NCBI GenBank assembly: GCA_002774875.1
Contig: PCYM01000006.1
Location: 91,095-137,834, forward strand
DNA: 46,740 nucleotides
From: Candidatus Uhrbacteria bacterium CG10_big_fil_rev_8_21_14_0_10_50_16
GTDB taxonomy: Bacteria; Patescibacteriota; Patescibacteriia; UBA9934; UBA11717
Direction of reading: 5' to 3'
Part shown: positions 1 through 43,714 of the stretch, in pieces
Position numbering within the stretch: position 1 is the stretch's first letter
Layout: every line of letters starts with the position of its first letter
The notes under the pieces: model-generated
What the model saw: only the letters and a program-made list of their open reading frames with translations
Told to the model about the DNA's origin: nothing
The model's database searches: none
Made by a program: the position numbers and the translations under genes

Positions 1-126
1 AGCAGCCTTCTTCGCAGCAGGCTTTCGCTTAGGAGCAGCTTTCTTTACAACTTTCTTTGCAGCTGGTTTTCGCTTAGCGACCTTTCGCTTAGGAGCAGCT
101 TTCTTAACAGATTTTTTTACTGGCAT
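1..126 (-). CDS. Lys/Ala-rich histone H1-like basic protein; only the N-terminal 42 codons are in the window and the gene runs off the left edge
   Basis: Not in the ORF track because it is truncated. The reverse complement reads ATG (124-126) then MPVKKSVKKAAPKRKVAKRKPAAKKVVKKAAPKRKPAAKKAA. AGGAGG (rc of 135-140) lies 8 nt upstream. A 60-nt-period nucleotide repeat encodes the KKAAPKRK units. Confidence 0.5.
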   Translation of the reverse strand, partial: MPVKKSVKKAAPKRKVAKRKPAAKKVVKKAAPKRKPAAKKAA

Positions 127-226
127 GGTGTTCACCTCCTTTCATGTGTTGCACGATGTGCAAGCTCGCGTGTGCATCTTAACGATGATCGACTCGCGGT
201 GTTACGTGTTGCGTAACGACTCCTAC

Positions 227-232
227 ATTATA
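227..232 (-). promoter_or_regulatory. Candidate -10 box (TATAAT) for the Lys/Ala-rich protein gene
   Basis: The rc of attata is a perfect TATAAT about 100 nt upstream of the ATG at 126. A GTTACG/CGTAAC inverted repeat lies between them at about 201-218. Confidence 0.3.
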
Positions 233-352
233 GCGTGCACAGTAGGCAATACAACACGTTACGTCGCAAAGATGTGGATAACAACAAAACGATAATTTAT
301 TTTGCGCACGTTTATTTACGCTGAACGCTTGTTGCGAAGTCTGTTAAAGAAA

Positions 353-1690
353 TTATTCTTGAACAATGACAGGTGTTCCAACTTCGGCCCAGTTATAAAC
401 CCAGGCAACGCCGTCGTAAGGCGCGTTCACACAACCGTGCGACATAGGGTGCCCCCAGTTGTTGTGCCAGTATGCGTAGTGAATATAAAAGTGTCGCGAA
501 AACTCTAAATTAAATTCTACGTTCGGAAGATTATAGAGAAGGTTCCCCGCGCGATCAAATGATCGATAGTCGTGCCATCGCAATTTCCGCATCACAGCAA
601 ACTCACCGAGCGGAGTTTTAAATGGCCACTTTCCTGCAGAAATAAGGAATGAATTACGTAAAACGCCCTGTTCATAAGCATAAAGTCGCTGTTCACTTAT
701 ATCAACCATGATATGTTTGTCCAAACGTTCTGCGAGCACGGGAGATGTTGTAACTGAGAGAAGCGTGTCGGGACCTGTAGAGGCAATAAGAACGCGATCG
801 GTTAATTGTGCATTAAAGGCAAAATGATCAAATACAGGTTGACCGTCTGAGCGAATCATCCGCACATGGGGACCGCCGTGACCGTTAGGCGCAACACCGA
901 AGAGTTCGTCGCTTACCGGGAACAACGTAACGCCGTAGGGATAGTTTGCGTAGAGACGAATTGGTTCACTGAGCGCAACACTGTTGTCTTGATCGAACGT
1001 GGCAATGCGAGCCTCGGGTACTCCATACCCATAACGTGCAATCACGAGTTCGTCGCGGCCGTCGGAAGTTTGATCGATGCGTGTAACAGACATACCGGAT
1101 CGATCAGACGCATCGAAGGCAAAAAAATCTGTGACAAGTGTTCCTTTATGTGTGAACAAACGAATGTGCGGGCCGCCTGTTAATCCCGCAGCCGTCACAA
1201 TTTCTCGTGTCCCGTCACCGTCGATATCTGCCGTAGCGACGTTTACACCGCCTGTAAACAATTCATCGTAAGCAAAAAATTGATTTTGTAACTCACCGTA
1301 CCCACTAAAGACACGTACGTGTGGACCTGCTCCGATCATGGTTCCTGTAACAACCTCCGCGATACCGTCACCAGTGATATCACCCGCGGTTACTGTTACC
1401 CCGCTGGTCATCGTGTCCGCATAGGGAGCAAATGTACGGATCAGCGATCCGTCCAAACGTAAAATAGCCACGGTCGGCACCTGATTGCGTCCAGAAGAAA
1501 CAATGAGCTCATCAATTCCGTCACCCCCTAGATCTGCCCGTACTAGCATGCCAACTTCCTCAAACGGAATCTCGAGTGTTAGCGGAGACTGTACACCTTC
1601 TGCGATATTTGCAACCGAAAATGAATCTGCGAATGCAACGGAAGGGAAGAGAAAAAAGAGAAGGAAGGCGATTACAAGTGGAGTGCGCAT
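353..1690 (-). CDS. Secreted L,D-transpeptidase (YkuD domain) fused to FG-GAP/VCBS-like repeats
   Basis: 445-aa ORF with a signal-like N-terminus, MRTPLVIAFLLFFLFPSVAFA. It has repeated DxDGDGxxE-type motifs (DLGGDGIDELIV, DITGDGIAEVV, DIDGDGTREIV, DQTSDGRDELV). The C-terminal YkuD catalytic motif is HPMSHGCVNA...GTPVIV. Confidence 0.85.
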   Translation of the reverse strand: MRTPLVIAFLLFFLFPSVAFADSFSVANIAEGVQSPLTLEIPFEEVGMLVRADLGGDGIDELIVSSGRNQVPTVAILRLDGSLIRTFAPYADTMTSGVTVTAGDITGDGIAEVVTGTMIGAGPHVRVFSGYGELQNQFFAYDELFTGGVNVATADIDGDGTREIVTAAGLTGGPHIRLFTHKGTLVTDFFAFDASDRSGMSVTRIDQTSDGRDELVIARYGYGVPEARIATFDQDNSVALSEPIRLYANYPYGVTLFPVSDELFGVAPNGHGGPHVRMIRSDGQPVFDHFAFNAQLTDRVLIASTGPDTLLSVTTSPVLAERLDKHIMVDISEQRLYAYEQGVLRNSFLISAGKWPFKTPLGEFAVMRKLRWHDYRSFDRAGNLLYNLPNVEFNLEFSRHFYIHYAYWHNNWGHPMSHGCVNAPYDGVAWVYNWAEVGTPVIVQE

Positions 1691-2925: not shown

Positions 2926-3375
2926 ATGAAAGCTAAAGATTTTTCTCTCGTCGATCAAAACGGTGTTGTTCGAACATTAAATGACTACAAAGGTCAGTAT
3001 GTTCTCTTGTATTTTTATCCGAAAGATATGACGCCTGGTTGTACCATCGAGGCCGTGTGTTTTAGGGATTCGCTTAACGATTTTAAAGCGGTGGGTATTC
3101 AAGTGCTTGGCGTGAGTGCAGATACGGTAGCGTCTCATAAAAAATTTGCGGACGCACATAAACTCAATTTCCCTCTTTTGTCCGATGTGGACCGAACGGT
3201 CATTCGATCGTATGGGGCAGAAGGGGAGAAGTCGATGTTTGGAAAGAAATACATGGGAATACTGCGAGATTCATTCCTCATTGATCCAAAAGGCGTGATT
3301 GCAAAGCATTACGAGAAGGTAAACCCGGCCAAACACGCGCAGGAGGTACTGGATGACATGCGTCAACAGAAATAA
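2926..3375 (+). CDS. bcp: Thiol peroxidase / peroxiredoxin, Bcp type
   Basis: 149-aa ORF with the peroxiredoxin active-site motif FYPKDMTPGCTIE and the overall AhpC/TSA layout. Confidence 0.9.
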   Translation: MKAKDFSLVDQNGVVRTLNDYKGQYVLLYFYPKDMTPGCTIEAVCFRDSLNDFKAVGIQVLGVSADTVASHKKFADAHKLNFPLLSDVDRTVIRSYGAEGEKSMFGKKYMGILRDSFLIDPKGVIAKHYEKVNPAKHAQEVLDDMRQQK

Positions 3376-3394
3376 CCATAAAGACAGAATCGAT

Positions 3395-4507
3395 ATGTCA
3401 GAACATTCGGGACGTCAGATTACAGAAGCAGAAATTGGTCATGGAATAGAGGCGATCAAGGATCAAGAATTGATTAGTCGCTACCAACCAACCTATTTGG
3501 GTATGGGTGGGGAACAAGTCGTTTTTGGTATTGAGGGGCATCCGAATTCGGTGATAAAAGTGCATAAACATACCTTCGGACAGGTATTGAACTACAATCG
3601 AACAGAAGGAATTTTAGATCATGTTTTATCACCGGAAGCACGCAGTTATCTCGAATTGCGACTCGCAAGGGATAGGGAATCACAATGGTTGCTCGCGAAG
3701 CATTTTTCTGAGCACACACTTCCTGAGCGTCAGTACGTTCAACAACTCCCCGTAACACGTCAATTGCAAACCGCGATACAGGATCGCTGGTCCACATTTG
3801 ATCCATTGCCGGACGGTGTACACCAGCTTTGGACAACGATCCGCGTGCAAAAACGTCTTCCTGTTGAAGCGACAAAGGAAGGAGGAGCGATATCTCTTGC
3901 AACGCCCTATCTGGAAGAGAGCATATTCGATGATGGACTAGAAGAGTACAGGGAAAATATTTCTATACTCTTGGACGGAGCTTCATTGGATGACACGGGA
4001 CTGTTGGATGAATGTCTCCCCCATACAATACTTGATGCTATGGATGGAGATCCTGCATTGCGAGACATATTGCGTGATTTTACTGAACGCGCAATTCAGT
4101 ACACAGAGGACAGTGGGGAATTGTTAGATATTGCGGGCGATTGGAACGTTGTCGTTTTTAAAAAAGAAAACGAGAAGGGCGAGATGGTTTGGGATTACTT
4201 GTTGCCGGATGTAAAATATCCAGCACGCGAATCGGTCTCACGCGGGAGAATGGGCATTGAGACGCTTTTAGATGGAGGTGCCTCGGATCCTGAGCAAGAA
4301 AACACCATACTCAACACTGTTGCCTATACGCGATTTGTAAATGCACTCGCGATAGCAACTGGCTCGGACCGTCGTCTTAAAATTGCTGATCGGCCTATCG
4401 CTCCAAAGAGCAATGAGTTGCTGCGTGTCCTAAAGCGGGAGCTTGCGCGTTGGCATGAACCTGTCGATTCCGGAGAAAAAGAGGCGACATCGGTGGATGC
4501 TTCGTAA
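3395..4507 (+). CDS. Acidic hypothetical protein, possibly with a protein-kinase-like fold
   Basis: The track ORF 3353-4507 was trimmed to the first ATG after the bcp stop (MSEHSG...). Weak kinase-like landmarks are GMGGEQVVFGI...SVIKVHK (Gly-loop plus Lys), LDIAGDWNVVVF (D..N) and LLPDVKY. Confidence 0.6.
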   Translation: MSEHSGRQITEAEIGHGIEAIKDQELISRYQPTYLGMGGEQVVFGIEGHPNSVIKVHKHTFGQVLNYNRTEGILDHVLSPEARSYLELRLARDRESQWLLAKHFSEHTLPERQYVQQLPVTRQLQTAIQDRWSTFDPLPDGVHQLWTTIRVQKRLPVEATKEGGAISLATPYLEESIFDDGLEEYRENISILLDGASLDDTGLLDECLPHTILDAMDGDPALRDILRDFTERAIQYTEDSGELLDIAGDWNVVVFKKENEKGEMVWDYLLPDVKYPARESVSRGRMGIETLLDGGASDPEQENTILNTVAYTRFVNALAIATGSDRRLKIADRPIAPKSNELLRVLKRELARWHEPVDSGEKEATSVDAS

Positions 4508-19309: not shown

Positions 19310-19402
19310 CTAAATGTTCTTGATTCCTTCGCCGAGTATCCTCATCTTCAAACACATGCGTTTTAAAGAGACTCTGCATAGGCTCCATCTTTCAAAACAC
19401 AC
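19310..19402 (-). CDS. Candidate small Cys-rich protein (30 aa from a GTG start; 44 aa from the ATG at 19442 if the G5 run at 19411-19415 is one nt too long)
   Basis: The frame reads VCFERWSLCRVSLKRMCLKMRILGEGIKNI*. It shares C-x6-C-R-x3/4-K-x2-C-x-K-M-x3-G-E-G-x-K with the right-edge ORF (46591-46740). A host-type TGCTATAAA box lies 7 nt upstream of the ATG at 19442. Confidence 0.3.
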   Translation of the reverse strand: MCFERWSLCRVSLKRMCLKMRILGEGIKNI

Positions 19403-19587
19403 GTGTTCTTGGGGGCGAAGGGCTGGATCTGATCGCGAGCATCTCTCTTTTATAGCACGGCCGGGGTCCTTCGACTCCGTTCATACAACTCACTCCGCTC
19501 AGGATGACATGAAGAGATCCTTCCCTACGCGTGCCCGCCTGCGGAGGGAGGGGTAACTCACAACGATACTTGTAGACATCGTAAACC

Positions 19588-26899: not shown

Positions 26900-26938
26900 A
26901 AAAGGCACGCCCGGCCGACAGATTCGTCGACCGGGCGT
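26898..26938 (-). terminator. GC-rich intrinsic terminator of cassette-1 ORF
   Basis: Stem ACGCCCGGTCGAC/GTCGGCCGGGCGT (one mismatch) followed by T6 on the minus strand. Confidence 0.7.
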
Positions 26939-26954
26939 ACGTTGATGTTGCGAA

Positions 26955-27278
26955 TCAGACGAGCGGCTCCTCCCCCCTGCTCTTTCGCATAGAGTTGATG
27001 ATCTCGCAGACGGCGGCTCGAGAGATACCGTGCCTGCGCACCAGGTTGATCCCGGTGTCCACGTACCTCCTGGTCCCCGCCGACGTTCCGTTGCTCGTCA
27101 CCACCAGAAAGCAGGTGAGTCCGAAGCTCGGCACCATCTTCCTCATGTACGGCATCGTCTGGATGTCACCCATGATCTTCACCTCGGTGATCTCGACGCC
27201 CCTCTTACCTCCTCCCCCTTTCAGGATGGTGTAGGTTCCACGATCTGCTTCCCTCGACCTCGACTGCGTGTGGCCCAT
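26955..27278 (-). CDS. High-GC orphan protein with a C-terminal helix-turn-helix-like segment (cassette 1)
   Basis: 107-aa ORF. Third codon positions are overwhelmingly G/C in this frame. The Shine-Dalgarno site GAAAGGGGGA is 6 nt upstream of the ATG. The C-terminus is GINLVRRHGISRAAVCEIINSM. Confidence 0.55.
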   Translation of the reverse strand: MGHTQSRSREADRGTYTILKGGGGKRGVEITEVKIMGDIQTMPYMRKMVPSFGLTCFLVVTSNGTSAGTRRYVDTGINLVRRHGISRAAVCEIINSMRKSRGEEPLV

Positions 27279-27301
27279 TGTGGGTCCCCCTTTCTGTGAT
27301 G

Positions 27302-33334: not shown

Positions 33335-33415
33335 ACCGCTCTATCTCTGGGGCGGCTCAATTATTTTATAAAAAGGGGGTCAGGTACTTCCTTCTAACAT
33401 TCCTCCCCACATCCT

Positions 33416-33444
33416 TGACAAAGTGCCGATTTTATGGTATTTAG
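33416..33444 (+). promoter_or_regulatory. Candidate promoter (TTGACA-17 nt-TATTTA) for cassette-2 ORF b
   Basis: Consensus -35 at 33416-21, 17-nt spacer, -10 at 33439-44. Confidence 0.5.
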
Positions 33445-33496
33445 GGCGTGTCATAAAGACCGCTACCGCCGTAAGCGGCAACCATTCGGAGGAGTA

Positions 33497-33700
33497 ATGG
33501 CTCGATTGGAAAGCCCGTATTGGGATGAGCGACTTGGGGTGTGCGAGAAGCACTACCTGCCGTCTGTCCCGTGCCCGGCCTGCCTCGCAGATCGGGACGA
33601 GGACGTGGTAGTCGTGCTCGACGAGCTCGAGCGTGGGGGATGGGTCCTCTACGATGAACTCGCCATCCCGAAGGGGTTCGAGAACCACAACCGGCGGTAG
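33497..33700 (+). CDS. High-GC orphan small protein with a zinc-ribbon-like CxxH...CxxC motif (cassette 2, ORF b)
   Basis: 67 aa, MARLESPYWDERLGVCEKHYLPSVPCPACLADRDEDVVVVLDELERGGW.... The Shine-Dalgarno site GGAGGAG is 2 nt upstream of the ATG. The track start at 33434 was trimmed. Confidence 0.5.
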   Translation: MARLESPYWDERLGVCEKHYLPSVPCPACLADRDEDVVVVLDELERGGWVLYDELAIPKGFENHNRR

Positions 33701-33749
33701 CGCAACGTGCCGCCCAGCAAGAACCATCCACTTCGAAAGGAGGTGGCGG

Positions 33750-34889
33750 TCACTTGGTGGGCGGTTCTTGTTTTAAATAATTCAACGTCTCTTGCGCGCA
33801 GAGGTTCCAGGTAAATTGTTTGGCTTGCTCAATCCCGCGTGTGCGTAGCTCGGCCTGTAGTTGCGGATCGCGTAGAAGTTGATCAATCGTTTGCGTGAGC
33901 TCATTTGCATTCATCGCGCGTACCGAGAGGACCGCATCGGACCCTACCTCTAATAAACTACTGTTGCGTGCGGTAATCACAGGCGTTCCGCAAGCCATGG
34001 CCTCGGTAATCTGCATCCCAAATCCTTCGTAGCGCGATGGCAACACAAGCGCCGTTGCCCCACGGAGCAGCGCAGGTCTATCCGTATCGTCTACAAACCC
34101 AAGTACATGAATATCTTGTTTGTAGGGGGAGCGGTTGATAGCAGAATCAAGTGCGCGACGTTTCCATCCACGGCCGCCCGCGAGGACAAGGTGCTCTGTG
34201 TGTCCCTGCGTGCGGAGCTGATTATAGCTTTCCACAAGGGACACAAGATTTTTGCGTGGTTCGCACGTGGCGAGTGAGAGGAGATAGGGGTGTGTAATGC
34301 CAAGTCGTTGTTTACGTGTTGTATCATCCGGCCGTTTTCGTTCTTGAAATTGTGTGTGGTCTAGCCCGTGTAAAATAGTTTTGCAGTTTTGGGGTGATCG
34401 ACCAAATGCGGTAAAGAGATCGTGCTGGCTATGGTCGGACACGGCGATGACCTTGGTGGCATGTTGCAGCGTTGTGCGCGCACGCGTGATCCTATACCGC
34501 ACGTGGTGGAGCTGATTATAGGTTTCTGAGAGCAAAACCCAGGCAAGATCATGCACGGTCACCACGGTTGGAATCTGCGTGCGCGGCAAGTACCCGGTGT
34601 TAGGATACCAAACAACATCTACCGACTCGCCCAGCAGATGCTCGAGCGAAACGAATCCAAGAGCAATTGCCGAGTTGATGAGTTTATTGGGAATGCGGCG
34701 ATGAATATGACGAACGTGGGGAAGCAACTGGAGGGAAGAGGGGAGTGCAAGCGGTTTCCATCCGCGCGAAAAAAAGACGAGTTGTGTGTGCTCGTCGGGG
34801 TGCATGGCTTGTATTGTTTCCAACACATAATGACCCACGCCGCTTGGTGTGGTGCCATAGAGACTTTGAATATCAATCGCGATCTTCAT
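33750..34889 (-). CDS. Glycosyltransferase, GT4 family
   Basis: MKIAIDIQSL...GVGHYV... with the C-terminal segment PSRYEGFGMQITEAMACGTPVITA. Confidence 0.85.
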   Translation of the reverse strand: MKIAIDIQSLYGTTPSGVGHYVLETIQAMHPDEHTQLVFFSRGWKPLALPSSLQLLPHVRHIHRRIPNKLINSAIALGFVSLEHLLGESVDVVWYPNTGYLPRTQIPTVVTVHDLAWVLLSETYNQLHHVRYRITRARTTLQHATKVIAVSDHSQHDLFTAFGRSPQNCKTILHGLDHTQFQERKRPDDTTRKQRLGITHPYLLSLATCEPRKNLVSLVESYNQLRTQGHTEHLVLAGGRGWKRRALDSAINRSPYKQDIHVLGFVDDTDRPALLRGATALVLPSRYEGFGMQITEAMACGTPVITARNSSLLEVGSDAVLSVRAMNANELTQTIDQLLRDPQLQAELRTRGIEQAKQFTWNLCAQETLNYLKQEPPTK

Positions 34890-37659: not shown

Positions 37660-38095
37660 GGTATAAGCCTTGGGACACCTGTAAGCCGAATTCTGTCTAG
37701 CCACGTAAAGCTCCAAGGAGCTACGTGGGAGACCGCGATCTATCTGGGCACAACATTGCTGTTGGGCTCGAGCGTGCTACCAAATTTGCACTTGCACCGG
37801 GATGGGTTTACCACGTCACTCTGTCACCAGAGGACGAGTTGCGTGATGTACAACCGAAGTCGCACACCGTATCGCAGCACTTTTCACCTTAAGCCGTGAG
37901 CGGCCGTATTGTCTCTGTGGCACTTTCCCTAGGCTTTGTGCATCTCTCACTCACAGGAATCCAATGAGTGAACGATCCACGTATACCCGGTCGCCGTTAA
38001 CGACATCCCTTGTTCTGGACATTGCTGTCGCAGAGGTGTTCGGACTTTCCTCCCAGTAACCTGGGCCGCGGTCCGGTGCTCCTGTAAAGGATAAG
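37660..38095 (-). ncRNA. rnpB: RNase P RNA, bacterial type A (ends approximate)
   Basis: The minus strand carries GGGAGGAAAGTCCGAAC (CR-I), AAGGTGAAAAGTGC, GTAAACCCATCCCGGTGCAAGTGCAAAT, CCCAGATAGATCG and GACAGAATTCGGCTTAC (CR-V). The order and spacing match E. coli M1 RNA. P1 can form between CCTTTACAGGAGCACC and GGTGTCCCAAGG. Confidence 0.9.
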
Positions 38096-38104
38096 AACGG
38101 GATA

Positions 38105-38133
38105 AAGATACAGGAAAAGTAAGCTTTTGTCAA
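38105..38133 (-). promoter_or_regulatory. rnpB promoter (TTGACA-17 nt-TATCTT)
   Basis: The rc of 38128-38133 is TTGACA and the rc of 38105-38110 is TATCTT. The predicted start is a few nt upstream of P1. Confidence 0.6.
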
Positions 38134-38184
38134 CCGTATTGAGGCCTCAGTAGGCTAGTATTAGCTGTATATCCGCTATTTGTC

Positions 38185-38213
38185 TTGACAGCAGGCTGTT
38201 TTTATACTATAAG
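38185..38213 (+). promoter_or_regulatory. Promoter of the mini-sigma ORF (TTGACA-17 nt-TATAAG)
   Basis: -35 at 38185-90, 17-nt spacer, -10 at 38208-13. It is divergent from the rnpB promoter. Confidence 0.55.
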
Positions 38214-38269
38214 CTAAGGGTCGAAAGACGACGCCTCATGAGAGACGCCACTCTATCTCGGGAGAGAAC

Positions 38270-38710
38270 ATGGCAAAGAAGGCAAATCGAGAAGATGAGC
38301 TCAGGGAGCTCCTCGCGTCACAGGTAGCGGATATGGAGCAGGGCCCCGTGGTCATGCCCAAGGAACTGCCTAGCGGAGTTGATGGTGCTGTGCGGATGTT
38401 CTATGCGGACATCGAGGGTCAGTCGGCGCCGGACGTGCGTACTGCGGCGCGGCGCGATCCGGTCGTCGATCGTAGTCCGAGCGAGCTGGCCCTTGGGGTT
38501 CTGGTCTCGCTCACTGAGCCGCAGCAGTGCGTCCTGCGGATCCGGTTCGGAATCAATGCAGGCAGCAGCGACGGTGTTCCGGCGTCGGAGGAATCCAGAA
38601 CGCGTGAGCGTATCCGGCAGATCGAGGCGATGGCGTTGCGCAAGCTCCGTCACCCGTCTCGTGTGTTCCGCCCCCGTTCCACCACGGTAGACTCCACCGA
38701 AACGGAGTGA
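38270..38710 (+). CDS. High-GC mini sigma-70-like protein with region 1.2-like and region 4.2 segments only (cassette 3)
   Basis: 146 aa. [16 protein letters not shown]...[21 protein letters not shown] matches RpoD region 4 almost exactly (E. coli has [21 protein letters not shown]). [11 protein letters not shown] resembles region 1.2 (DPVRMYMREMG). Regions 2 and 3 are absent. Confidence 0.6.
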   Translation: [146 protein letters not shown]

Positions 38711-38721
38711 ACGATCTCTAC

Positions 38722-38762
38722 GGCCCCGTGTGCACTTTCTGCACCGGGGTCGTGGTCTTTTT
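38722..38762 (+). terminator. Intrinsic terminator of the mini-sigma ORF
   Basis: Stem CCCCGTGTGCA/TGCACCGGGG followed by TCGTGGTCTTTTT. Confidence 0.65.
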
Positions 38763-38788
38763 AAAACACCTCCGCCAGGGAGGTGTTT
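38763..38788 (-). terminator. Intrinsic terminator of trpS
   Basis: Stem ACACCTCC/GGAGGTGT followed by a T-run on the minus strand. Confidence 0.7.
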
Positions 38789-38790
38789 AG

Positions 38791-39777
38791 TTACTTTAGG
38801 GAAACGCCAACCTTCTTTCTGACGATCGCCATCTTTGCGGCGGCAATCTCTCGCGCCCGCGCCGCACCGGCGTCTAACACACGAATAAGCTCCGCCTCGT
38901 CTGCCAAATACTCACCGATTCTTTTCTGTAGGGGACTTAGGTAGCCAATAAGCGCTGCGGCCGTATCCTTTTTAAGATCGCCATAGCCCTTACCTTGGTA
39001 GGCCTGCAGTATCTGCTCCGTGGTTTGATCGCTCGCTAAGCTGTAAATGTCGATCAAGTTTTTAATCCCTGGCTGGTCGTCTGAATAGTTGATGGCGCCT
39101 TTGTCATCCGTCACTGCAGACATGATTTTTTTGTGAATCACGTCGGAGCTATCCATGAGCGAGATGTAATTTTTCTCGCTGTTTGCACTCTTGCTCATTT
39201 TTTTTGTGGGATCGTCGAGGCCGAGAATCTTGGCGCCAACTTCTTTGAGTTTTACCTCGGGTACATGAAATGTCTCGCCGTAAATACGATTAAATCGTTC
39301 GGCAATCGTGCGTGCTAATTCCACGTGCTGCTTTTGATCGTAACCCACGGGCACCATACGTGCGTCGTAGAGAAGGATGTCGGCCGCCATGAGAATCGGA
39401 TACGTAAACAGTGCCACGGGGACGTTCTCGCCCTGCATGATGGCTTTATCTTTGTATTGTGTCATACGCTCAATCTCGCTCATGCGCATGAGGGTAGAAA
39501 AAATCCATGCGAGTTCTGTGTGCTCTGAGACGGCGGATTGTTGGAACAAAATATTTTGTTCCACGTTGATTCCAGCGGCGAGATAGGTGGCCGCAAGCGC
39601 GAGAATATTTTTACGCAGGAGGGCGGGGTCGGACTCGGTGTCCATGGCATGATAATCCACGATCATCACAACACCGTTATAATTGACCTGAAAATCGACA
39701 AGCTGCTTGACCGAGCCAAAGTAGTTTCCGATGTGTAAAAGGTTGGTTGGGCGAATGCCGGTGAGGAAATCTGTCAT
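38791..39777 (-). CDS. trpS: Tryptophan--tRNA ligase
   Basis: 328-aa ORF with the HIGH-type motif TGIRPTNLLHIGNYFG, the KMSKS motif KKMSKSA, and class Ic size. Confidence 0.95.
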   Translation of the reverse strand: MTDFLTGIRPTNLLHIGNYFGSVKQLVDFQVNYNGVVMIVDYHAMDTESDPALLRKNILALAATYLAAGINVEQNILFQQSAVSEHTELAWIFSTLMRMSEIERMTQYKDKAIMQGENVPVALFTYPILMAADILLYDARMVPVGYDQKQHVELARTIAERFNRIYGETFHVPEVKLKEVGAKILGLDDPTKKMSKSANSEKNYISLMDSSDVIHKKIMSAVTDDKGAINYSDDQPGIKNLIDIYSLASDQTTEQILQAYQGKGYGDLKKDTAAALIGYLSPLQKRIGEYLADEAELIRVLDAGAARAREIAAAKMAIVRKKVGVSLK

Positions 39778-39917: not shown

Positions 39918-40787
39918 TCAGGCGGCGTCGTCGTCGTTGGAGCCGTGCCGTCCGAGCTGAGCCGAGCGAACCGTGCCGAGGAAGGACGTGCGATGACCTT
40001 GGCCGAGTCCGGAGGAGTGCGCTCGCATGCCGGACACGAGGGCTGCCTGATCTCCCAGAGCAACCTGCAGGGGCTCGATCACGTTCTGAAGGGCGTTGCC
40101 GAGAAAGTGCCTCTCTACGCCGTGCTGGATCATGTAGGTGACGCCGGCGCTCATCTCAAGCCATGCCCTGGCCATCTCGGGGGCCAGTGAGTGAGCAGAT
40201 GCCTCCCACGCCAGCCGTTCGCCATAGGCCTTGTGCTGCAAGGCGGAGAGCAGGTTGGCCGTGAATCGGTTCCAATCCAACTGACCGTTCGCGTTGTACA
40301 AAACCTTTCCCCAGACACCCGCTCCACTGCTCTGCAAGTAGAGGTAGGCTTCCGAGAGAAAAAGACCGATGATGAACAGGAACATGGCCGGATCCGTGCG
40401 ACCCGCGTTGCCTTGGAGACGATTCCGCAGATCACGCTCCACGTCTCCCGTGAAGATGAGCACGACGTGCTCCAGACCAGCGGCGCTGGTCGCCATGCCT
40501 GCCGAACTGTCGACACGTCCCACGAACGCCGGGATGTGCTCGACAAGTCGTGTTCCTTGCCCACGAACGGTGTGAGGACCCTGTCCCAGCTTGAGCGCGA
40601 GGCCCATGGGCTCGTTGGGATCCTCCACCTCGTTCCCGCTGGAGAAGTCCAGCCTGCGTTCTTCGACCTGATTGCTCGGCGTGCGGCGGCCAGCCGCGGC
40701 CGTGCGCCCCATGAACTGGGGTTGTCCCCAGCGCTGCCACGCGAACATCAAACCAATACCCATCAACAATGCCAGCAGGTATCCCAT
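39918..40787 (-). CDS. High-GC orphan membrane-anchored protein (cassette 4)
   Basis: 289 aa from the ATG at 40787, with the Shine-Dalgarno site GGAGGG 8 nt upstream. N-terminal TM is MGYLLALLMGIGLMFAW. Of the many overlapping ORFs here, this frame has strongly G/C-biased third positions. I recognise no motif. Confidence 0.55.
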   Translation of the reverse strand: MGYLLALLMGIGLMFAWQRWGQPQFMGRTAAAGRRTPSNQVEERRLDFSSGNEVEDPNEPMGLALKLGQGPHTVRGQGTRLVEHIPAFVGRVDSSAGMATSAAGLEHVVLIFTGDVERDLRNRLQGNAGRTDPAMFLFIIGLFLSEAYLYLQSSGAGVWGKVLYNANGQLDWNRFTANLLSALQHKAYGERLAWEASAHSLAPEMARAWLEMSAGVTYMIQHGVERHFLGNALQNVIEPLQVALGDQAALVSGMRAHSSGLGQGHRTSFLGTVRSAQLGRHGSNDDDAA

Positions 40788-40963
40788 TATGGGGGCCCTC
40801 CAATTGCTCGAGAGAAACTCTACGAGCGGGTTTATTCGCAATCCAATCTCAACCTATCATTCCCAGGGAAACTGTCAACAGGCGCATGGGGGAATGAGAT
40901 CAAACTTGTGGCCAACCTTGCGGCTTTTTTGCACTCGGTCTATACTTTTTCTATAACGAACTC

Positions 40964-43064: not shown

Positions 43065-43154
43065 TGTGTTTTGGGTGGTTGAACGGCAATGGTAAGAAGG
43101 TCCTCTTCTTGATCTTGCGGGGGTTTGTGGTTCTATGGCGCGGAAGGAGGCCAC

Positions 43155-43637
43155 ATGGCACAAAATTACGGTTCGGGAAATGGAAAGAAGCGCAAGGCTT
43201 TTAGGCCGAGCCGGTCTGAAAAGCGCATGGTGAGGGAGGAATACGAACGCAGCACACGGATATGGAAGGAGTCGACGAGTCGTTGGCGGGGCCCTCAACC
43301 TGTGCTGCCCAAGGAGGGTACCGATGAGTGGAAGAAGATGCTCGAGGAAGCACGCCGGCGGAAGCGTCATAGGTACCAGTCTCGCAAGCCATCGCAGCCT
43401 GTTCCCAGGAACGCGCCGGCGATTACTCCGCGCGCGGCGGTGTATTTGCCGGATGGACGCAATGATGACGGTTCGAGCCGGCTCGTGGTCGTGGTATTCC
43501 TGATCGCCACGATATCGGCAATCACTTGGCTCTGGGTGAGCACCGTGATGAACTCCGACACGGGAGATGATGACGACTCCGCATCGACGCAGTCGGTGCC
43601 TTCCGAGCAGCTCCTCTTCGGCGTCGGACCGTGGTAG
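43155..43637 (+). CDS. Elevated-GC orphan protein with a basic N-terminus, one TM segment and an acidic tail (cassette 5)
   Basis: 160 aa from the ATG at 43155, with the Shine-Dalgarno site GGAAGGAGG 4 nt upstream. TM is LVVVVFLIATISAITWLWV. I recognise no motif. Confidence 0.5.
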   Translation: MAQNYGSGNGKKRKAFRPSRSEKRMVREEYERSTRIWKESTSRWRGPQPVLPKEGTDEWKKMLEEARRRKRHRYQSRKPSQPVPRNAPAITPRAAVYLPDGRNDDGSSRLVVVVFLIATISAITWLWVSTVMNSDTGDDDDSASTQSVPSEQLLFGVGPW

Positions 43638-43683
43638 CGCCTCTGGGTCTGTGCGTGATCTGGTAGATTCGTCTGAACGAAAA

Positions 43684-43714
43684 CGAGCCCGTCCTGGGCT
43701 CGCTCATTTTTTTT
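43684..43714 (+). terminator. Intrinsic terminator of cassette-5 ORF
   Basis: Stem CGAGCCC/GGGCTCG with loop GTCCT, followed by CTCATTTTTTTT. Confidence 0.75.

Follow-up and report, generated by a model that had tools for sequence, protein, structure and literature searches.

The mini-sigma open reading frame (ORF) described here lies in a stretch of 46,740 nucleotides from Candidatus Uhrbacteria bacterium CG10_big_fil_rev_8_21_14_0_10_50_16 (contig PCYM01000006.1, positions 91,095 to 137,834), which was analysed as a whole and is referred to as the window. The ORF (38270..38710, + strand) features an ATG start codon, encodes 146 residues and has a GC content of 0.63, with a GC content of 0.71 at third codon positions (GC3). 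On its left is rnpB, the gene for a class A RNase P RNA (37666..38084, - strand; Rfam RF00010, 144 bits), and on its right is trpS, the gene for tryptophanyl-tRNA synthetase (38791..39777, - strand; PF00579), which has the native composition with a GC content of 0.50. The rnpB promoter, TTGACA-17-TATCTT (38133..38105, - strand), is conserved in two related loci (L013 and L011). The ORF occupies a lineage-specific insertion of ~650 nt (38134..38790) between the trpS stop codon and the rnpB promoter. The insertion features a GC-rich core at 38270-38762, and its GC content is 0.62-0.69 versus a window mean of 0.50.

An earlier reading made without database searches, the sequence-only reading, had reported that the ORF has its own promoter-like site, ribosome-binding site and terminator, and all three were verified. 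The sigma-70-type promoter-like site, TTGACA-17 nt-TATAAG (38185..38213, + strand), is located 57 nt upstream of the ATG. It is the sole match with at most one mismatch to TTGACA-N17-TATAAT on both strands of the 46.7-kb window, where 0.21 matches are expected. The host uses TTGACA-17 promoters, as the conservation of the rnpB promoter across species reveals. The ribosome-binding site GGGAGAG (38260..38266, + strand) was read from the sequence and lies 3 nt before the ATG. The intrinsic terminator of the ORF (38718..38762, + strand) combines a GC-rich hairpin (38718-38755) with a downstream TTTTT (38758-38762), and the fold of 38700-38800 has an energy of -47.5 kcal/mol (z = -5.4). A second hairpin, AAACACCTCC…GGAGGTGTTT (38764..38788), is probably the trpS terminator on the - strand. 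The near-consensus promoter, the ribosome-binding site and seven new N-terminal codons suggest that the mini-sigma ORF is probably transcribed and translated.

Homology and state of the sigma region 4 module

The ORF had been described as a stand-alone sigma-70 C-terminal module of 146 residues, and its coordinates and sequence were verified. The assignment of its C-terminal part to sigma region 4 is likewise supported by several profile searches. In a Pfam scan at E<=10, Sigma70_r4 is the sole family that matches the ORF (residues 79-128 of 146, E 3.9e-5, 23.5 bits), and r1_2, r2, r3 and r4_2 have no match. These were the profiles that the sequence-only reading had proposed as a check; region 4 is matched, but its score is just below the Sigma70_r4 gathering score of 24.1 bits. 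The NCBIfam RpoD/SigA models match the C-terminal part with E values from 2.8e-14 to 1e-11. In the TIGR02393 model residues 18-132 of the ORF correspond to model positions 122-230 of 238, and the TIGR02393 and NF005920 alignments reach back to residues 18-22, which are paired with region 3. A profile built from 84 sigma C-termini scores 84 bits (E 4e-27) over profile positions 72-195 of 204. The match to this profile is confined to the ORF's own frame when all six frames of 38134-38790 are searched unfiltered (--max). A MAFFT alignment with sigma C-termini and the 84-sequence profile give the same layout of the ORF, and in PDB alignments ORF residues 75-133 correspond to residues 545-605 of sigma70.

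As judged from these alignments, the ORF aligns collinearly with the final ~125 residues of RpoD, which comprise the end of region 3.1 and regions 3.2, 4.1 and 4.2. Homology and collinearity extend from residue ~8 to ~137 and are preceded by the seven new N-terminal residues. There are some discrepancies with the sequence-only reading regarding the upstream half of the protein. That reading assigned an 11-residue motif to region 1.2 and proposed an architecture in which region 1.2 is fused directly to region 4.2. The r1_2 family has no match, and collinearity places the motif in the 3.2 linker, at or adjoining the HLGDFIED motif of real sigmas, so the fused architecture falls away and the ORF simply runs collinear with the RpoD end. 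Regions 2 and 3 had also been considered missing. The absence of region 2 stands, but that of region 3 holds only in part, as residues 8-62 align to the last sigma-3 helix and region 3.2. Regions 1.1, 1.2 and 2 were not found in the ORF by Pfam at E<=10. Additionally, the profile match sets in at the end of region 3 (position 72 of 204), and the ORF thus lacks region 2. Without region 2 there is no β' clamp-helix core binding, no -10 recognition and no DNA melting, and therefore the ORF cannot be a sigma factor.

The state of each segment was audited against conserved columns, defined as those at least 80% conserved among the 84 homologues; all of the segments lie on the + strand. The last sigma-3 helix and a diverged 3.2 linker (38291..38455, residues 8-62) keep 6/15 conserved columns. 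Residues 8-24 are the last sigma-3 helix, where EDELRELL resembles EDKIRKIM, and residues 25-62 are the 3.2 linker that holds the 11-residue motif. Region 4.1 (38456..38551, residues 63-94) features two helices and keeps 10 of its 13 conserved columns. The motif L-x2-L-T…VL-R-x-RFG is retained in region 4.1, and the near-invariant Arg and Glu (R554 and E555 in sigma70) are replaced by P84 and Q85. The first helix (H3) of the helix-turn-helix (HTH), which has the motif TLEEVGxxFxV, is replaced by a degenerate Gly/Ser/Pro loop (38552..38599, residues 95-110). This patch keeps 0/8 conserved columns and features a 2-residue deletion and a proline, which bears out the earlier observation that the first HTH helix is abnormal. 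The region 4.2 recognition helix (H4; 38600..38662, residues 111-131) keeps 20/21 conserved columns, and the single change is Lys to M121, the position of K593 in sigma70. Column retention differs between H4 and H3 with p = 2e-6 in a Fisher test. The C-terminal tail (38663..38707, residues 132-146) is diverged, with neither of its two conserved columns kept. Altogether, H4 (20/21) and region 4.1 (10/13) are retained versus 6/25 columns elsewhere in the ORF. A compensated double frameshift or an inversion behind the scrambled H3 was considered and rejected, as a six-frame profile search restores no motif.

The residues that are used by sigma-4 to contact the β flap were located by alignment to E. 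coli sigma70. Pro135 of the ORF corresponds to L607, Ser71 to R541, Thr138 to F610 and Thr139 to L611. L607P together with R541C are substitutions that have been used to break the contact between sigma4 and the β flap (bioRxiv 10.1101/2022.01.24.477500), and F610 and L611 are located within the C-terminal segment that contacts MotA (PMC6755090). Not one of these four flap-contact residues is retained in the ORF. The flap tip reportedly targets the residues contacted by MotA, to go by the title of a 2011 paper by Bonocora. The base-contact equivalents are all present in the ORF, with R112, E113, R116 and Q117 corresponding to R584, E585, R588 and Q589. The equivalents of R554, K593 and the whole of H3 are lost. 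We take R584, E585, R588 and Q589 to be the residues that contact the bases of the -35 element and R554, L573/E574 and K593 to be those that contact the backbone, from the Taq sigma-A4/-35 structure 1KU7.

The Sigma70_r4 domain is not intact in the ORF, based on the score of 23.5 versus 24.1 bits, the 0/8 columns kept in H3 and the coil predicted there; the homology itself is secure (E 2.8e-14). AlphaFold2 (AF2) run without a multiple sequence alignment (MSA) gave an unusable model with a predicted local distance difference test (pLDDT) score of 38. With a sigma MSA the mean pLDDT is 67 and helices are predicted at residues 3-24, 39-49, 70-80, 83-93 and 105-126. This model features a coil at the position of the first HTH helix, and the pLDDT is about 85-88 for the 4.1 helices and ~92 for the recognition helix. 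The predicted structure fails to superpose on sigma-4 in Foldseek, where the sigma matches in the PDB are weak (E ~0.05, rmsd (root-mean-square deviation) 7-12 Å), too weak to settle the fold. By alignment and prediction, what both canonical sigma-4 activities depend on appears to be lost from the ORF: the first HTH helix is replaced, and of the flap residues L607 is changed to Pro and F610 to Thr.

An exhaustive HMMER scan of 1.84 billion cluster representatives recovered the ORF itself at 303 bits. It is followed by sigmas that align in two stretches (82 and 66 bits), and the remainder are generic RpoD tails at ~50 bits. A word-indexed search of 5.8 billion proteins returned a high score for the ORF itself alone. 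A metagenome-contig scan with the unique N-terminal 110 residues, a viral-contig scan and phage records revealed generic sigma tails only. The sequence-only reading had proposed that homologues of the same short architecture be sought in other genomes, and such relatives are absent from all of these searches; the ORF is a singleton that is present in one species. Short database proteins that feature regions 3 and 4 only were rejected as relatives, as these are frameshift-split rpoD genes in which an r1/r2 ORF lies next to dnaG and just ahead of the short ORF. No donor lineage stands out, as the best matches come from many phyla at about equal score.

The insertion and its surroundings

The sister species is represented by two loci, L013, which is UBA11717 (the GTDB representative), and L168. 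These loci share 79-84% nucleotide identity with the window and feature a homologue of ORF-B (described below), trpS and rnpB in the same order. TrpS is 86% identical to TrpS of Uhrbacteria UBA11717 over the best aligned segment, and by this protein the organism belongs to Candidatus Uhrbacteria (Patescibacteria). The start of rnpB lies 66-93 nt past the trpS stop codon in L013, L168, L011 and L012, with a trpS-rnpB distance of ~90 nt in the sister species; the gap in the window is 706 nt. The ORF was not found by tblastn in 80 related loci or in L168. The flanks of the insert feature no terminal inverted or direct repeats and no target-site duplication. No ORF of the size of a transposase or integrase fits 650 nt, and PHROGs returned a generic sigma match alone, so that the insert shows no hallmark of an insertion sequence, a MITE or a prophage remnant. 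Among the PADLOC models of anti-phage defence, MzaA alone is matched, at 27 bits and only in its region-4 part (model positions 603-661 of 683), which falls short of the near-full-length match of a known defence component. The insert matches no known RNA in Rfam at E<=1, and the 5' promoter region of the ORF has no paralogue in the sequence examined.

Two origins within the host genome were considered. The sequence-only reading had raised the possibility that the ORF is the 3' remnant of a disrupted full-length sigma gene with a recognisable pseudogene upstream. No upstream sigma remnant was found: rnpB is located directly upstream, and the 136 nt before the ATG are without sigma homology in any frame. 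Since the insertion is also absent from relatives, the ORF does not stem from a sigma gene that was broken in place. A partial duplication of a host gene was also rejected. The window encodes no other sigma, and a 453-residue protein that combines sigma region 4 with the alpha C-terminal domain (alpha-CTD) shares only 11/15 recognition-helix residues.

The identical ORF protein occurs on 9 contigs, and the 7 that are shown come from 7 samples and from independent assemblies (JGI, ENA and Logan). The DNA of the ORF and both junctions are identical across those 7 contigs, and the recurrence of the same sequence and junctions in independent assemblies means that the insertion is not an assembly chimera. 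The ORF is a foreign fragment that entered this species once the sister species had branched off. Contigs of this population are nearly identical, with 0-2 differing bases in 1.2-17 kb, and there is likewise a single TrpS variant. The population is thus clonal, and no second copy of the ORF turned up in the protein, metagenome or viral searches.

Several additional observations concern the trpS-rnpB region in related species. In another Uhrbacteria locus (L009:2900-5220) the spacer contains 2.3 kb of different DNA with a receiver-domain-like ORF (3265..3654, - strand), and insertions appear to recur at the trpS-rnpB spacer in this lineage. The Rfam score of rnpB in the window is low, and rnpB in the sister species (L013/L168) features an extra insertion of ~50 nt near its 5' end. 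The trpS gene of UBA11717 is split into two ORFs (L013:9-1108; 9..479 and 488..1108). This split is probably an assembly error, because trpS is intact in L168 and the trpS-rnpB spacer of L168 is identical to that of L013.

On the far side of trpS is ORF-B (39918..40841, - strand; called gene 39918..40787, 289 residues), which has a GC content of 0.62 and a GC3 of 0.75. ORF-B features an N-terminal membrane helix and has no Pfam, PHROG or PADLOC match. Its single orthologue, from the sister species, shows 81% amino acid identity, a ratio of nonsynonymous to synonymous substitution rates (dN/dS) of 0.23 and a GC3 of 0.72. Based on this orthologue and its dN/dS, ORF-B is a real, conserved lineage-specific gene under purifying selection that has kept a foreign-looking composition. 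In L011 and L009, the genes that lie upstream of trpS show no similarity to ORF-B and were rejected as its positional orthologues.

The chimera of sigma region 4 and the alpha-CTD mentioned above is encoded ~0.5 kb beyond the window end (L001:17634-18995, approximately window positions 47265-48626, - strand). The 453-residue protein features Sigma70_r4 at residues 203-251 and the alpha C-terminal domain at residues 358-415, and its gene has a GC3 of 0.84. It is located about 9 kb from the mini-sigma ORF and is the second oddity in the neighbourhood that is built from an RNA polymerase (RNAP) module. Its homologue in the sister species (298 residues, L168:1218-2114) is 32-50% identical and fast-evolving, and one other protein with this architecture was found (P0318). 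A TTGACAG motif that resembles a -35 element is located ahead of high-GC accessory genes, namely ORF-B (~40872-40878, - strand), the mini-sigma ORF (38185-38191, + strand) and the chimera gene of the sister species (L168:~1141). Further short high-GC islands are found at 26901-27300, 33401-33850 and 43151-43700, with a peak GC content of 0.61-0.63 in 300-nt windows versus the mean of 0.50. These three islands are in or next to intergenic space, and the small ORFs in them have no Pfam match. Additionally, an intergenic element of ~105 nt is repeated in two copies with 89% identity, at 19322-19428 of the window and at L001:17150-17256, beyond the window end. The ends of the element are inverted (CCTTCGCC … GGCGAAGG), and it looks like a miniature inverted-repeat transposable element (MITE).

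Origin and possible function

The best explanation, to which we assign a probability of roughly 0.55, is that the ORF is a captured fragment of a sigma gene that is probably expressed and is without a proven or canonical function. A foreign group-1 (RpoD/SigA-type) sigma gene of higher GC content would have supplied its 3'-terminal ~125 codons, and the donor stop codon and terminator probably came along with the fragment. It would have arrived within the ~650-nt insertion in the gap between trpS and the rnpB promoter of one Candidatus Uhrbacteria species, where it would have become a young orphan ORF. Any activity would run via region 4.1, whose helices are kept, and via the basic recognition helix, and not via a folded sigma-4 on the β flap. 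The lack of relatives, the absence from the sister species and the broken HTH and flap determinants argue against a function. If the ORF is a captured scrap only, it would be a clean, datable case of foreign DNA entering a genome of the candidate phyla radiation (CPR) at the variable trpS-rnpB spacer, and a scrap that has acquired full expression signals would be raw material for gene birth. As a singleton, the ORF is of modest importance at present.

Several points weigh against a captured scrap. Conservation is uneven, with 20/21 columns kept in H4 and 10/13 in region 4.1 versus 6/15 in region 3.x, 0/8 in H3 and 0/2 in the tail, and uniform neutral decay would not yield such a pattern. This unevenness hints at constraint on H4 and region 4.1, or at a single local lesion of H3 in a young fragment. 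Random scraps rarely carry the best promoter in 46.7 kb, a ribosome-binding site, an intact frame and a dedicated terminator. High-GC genes in this genome can be real, as is the case for ORF-B, with its dN/dS of 0.23, and for the chimera of region 4 and the alpha-CTD, which is conserved in the sister species. Streamlined CPR genomes also tend to shed junk DNA fast.

The alternative that survives best, considerably less probable than a captured fragment but still a serious one, is a functional small regulator derived from sigma-4. The ORF would be an accessory cassette drawn from mobile elements that have been poorly sampled, such as phages or plasmids of CPR bacteria. Such a regulator would use region 4.1 and the basic recognition helix, which features the R584/E585/R588/Q589 equivalents, most of the 590-603 patch and the R603 equivalent. 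Its targets would be factors that bind sigma-4 (an activator, an anti-sigma, a phage appropriator or the alpha-CTD) or TTGACA-like DNA, and their titration would modulate or protect housekeeping transcription. Selective conservation of H4 and region 4.1 relative to the other segments is consistent with a regulator, as is an intact ORF that features the strongest promoter match of the window, a ribosome-binding site and a terminator. The ORF is also fixed in every assembly of the population, and TTGACAG-type promoters precede other high-GC accessory genes that the genome has kept, including the chimera of sigma region 4 and the alpha-CTD 9 kb away. However, the architecture has no homologue among ~15 billion proteins, it is missing from the sister species, and the clonal population yields no selection signal. 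The core helix of the HTH is destroyed, which makes the fold doubtful, K593 is changed to Met, and the R554 and E555 equivalents are gone. To our knowledge, no natural sigma-4 mimic has been described. A more specific proposal, and a more tentative one again, is that the ORF is a functional natural mimic of sigma region 4 that is small and strongly expressed and titrates the factors that dock on sigma-4, and that it may join the chimera of region 4 and the alpha-CTD in a lineage set of genes derived from RNAP modules. A functional ORF would be the first stand-alone mimic of sigma-4 from nature, a type of regulator so far undescribed. It would also illustrate how a piece of an essential transcription gene can give rise to a regulator, here in a streamlined CPR bacterium with barely known transcription control.

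The sequence-only reading had proposed that a free region-4 module acts as a decoy that competes with the housekeeping sigma for the β-flap tip or for -35 DNA. In favour of a decoy, the homology to region 4 is real and the recognition helix keeps its base-contact residues; sigma-4 is also known to bind the flap-tip helix via region 4.2 while region 4.1 sits in the RNA-exit channel (PMC7948647, PMC6755090). Competition for the β flap is nevertheless unlikely given that L607 is replaced by Pro135, a flap-disrupting change, R541 by Ser71 and F610 by Thr. Competition for -35 DNA is doubtful as well, since the positioning helix of the HTH and several backbone-contact positions appear to be lost from the ORF. 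Together with a Pfam region 4 score below threshold and a predicted structure that is not superposable on sigma-4, these changes make the decoy improbable.

It is more improbable still that the ORF is one half of a split two-subunit sigma, in which a separate region-2 protein would provide core binding and -10 recognition. The fragment does keep a 3.2-like linker and region 4, and two-subunit sigmas exist (reviewed in PMC10141391). The ORF has no adjoining region-2-like ORF, as its neighbours are rnpB and trpS, and there is no other sigma homology in the window. The other short proteins with regions 3 and 4 only are frameshift-split rpoD genes with an r1/r2 ORF upstream, unlike the arrangement found here. 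Least probable of all is an artefact, either an assembly chimera of a CPR contig and the rpoD end of a high-GC organism or a spurious ORF of the kind that atypical, GC-rich DNA produces (overlapping antisense ORFs of 111 and 74 residues are examples), given the identical sequence and junctions in the JGI, ENA and Logan assemblies of 7 samples and a sigma homology that sits in the ORF's own frame.

Comparison with known systems

The ORF works like no established system; it is not a functional sigma, it does not feature an intact Sigma70_r4 domain, and by its residues it is unlikely to be a flap-binding sigma-4. Its closest likeness is to the group-1 sigmas RpoD and SigA, with which it shares a recognition helix that is identical except for the change of Lys to Met. 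Unlike RpoD and SigA, the ORF is without regions 1.1, 1.2, 2, 3.0 and most of 3.1, and the first HTH helix is replaced and is 2 residues shorter. The equivalents of R554, E555, K593, L607 and F610 are also changed. Additionally, the ORF is coded alone between rnpB and trpS and not in the dnaG-rpoD context of RpoD. The short database proteins with regions 3 and 4 only (for example P0072, P0083 and P0028) resemble the ORF in length, at 130-160 residues, and in Pfam content. However, proteins of this type are derived from frameshift-split or contig-cut rpoD genes, with ORFs for regions 1.1, 1.2 and 2 upstream next to dnaG, whereas the ORF in the window is without an upstream partner.

The ORF can also be compared with systems in which sigma functions are spread over separate small polypeptides, such as SigO-RsoA of B. 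subtilis and gp55 with gp33 of T4. These systems need a region-2-type partner, which is usually encoded nearby, and the ORF is without one in the window. Laboratory constructs, namely sigma70 region-4 fragments and the alpha-sigma4 chimeras of the bacterial two-hybrid, show that isolated sigma-4 can fold and bind the flap or DNA. Work on such fragments and chimeras is said to include that of Kuznedelov et al. in 2002, which is cited in PMC7948647. The laboratory constructs feature an intact HTH and keep L607, unlike the ORF, which has neither.

T4 AsiA, E. coli Rsd/AlgQ, gp39 of a Thermus phage and P7 of Xp10 are small proteins that alter promoter use at sigma region 4 or the flap (PMC6755090, PMC3089606, PMC3950348, PMC3985653). 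Their role is of the kind imagined for a sigma-4 decoy, at the same interface. The ORF is unrelated to these proteins in sequence, with Sigma70_r4 as its only Pfam match. AsiA, Rsd/AlgQ, gp39 and P7 bind sigma-4 or the flap, whereas the ORF would mimic sigma-4 itself.

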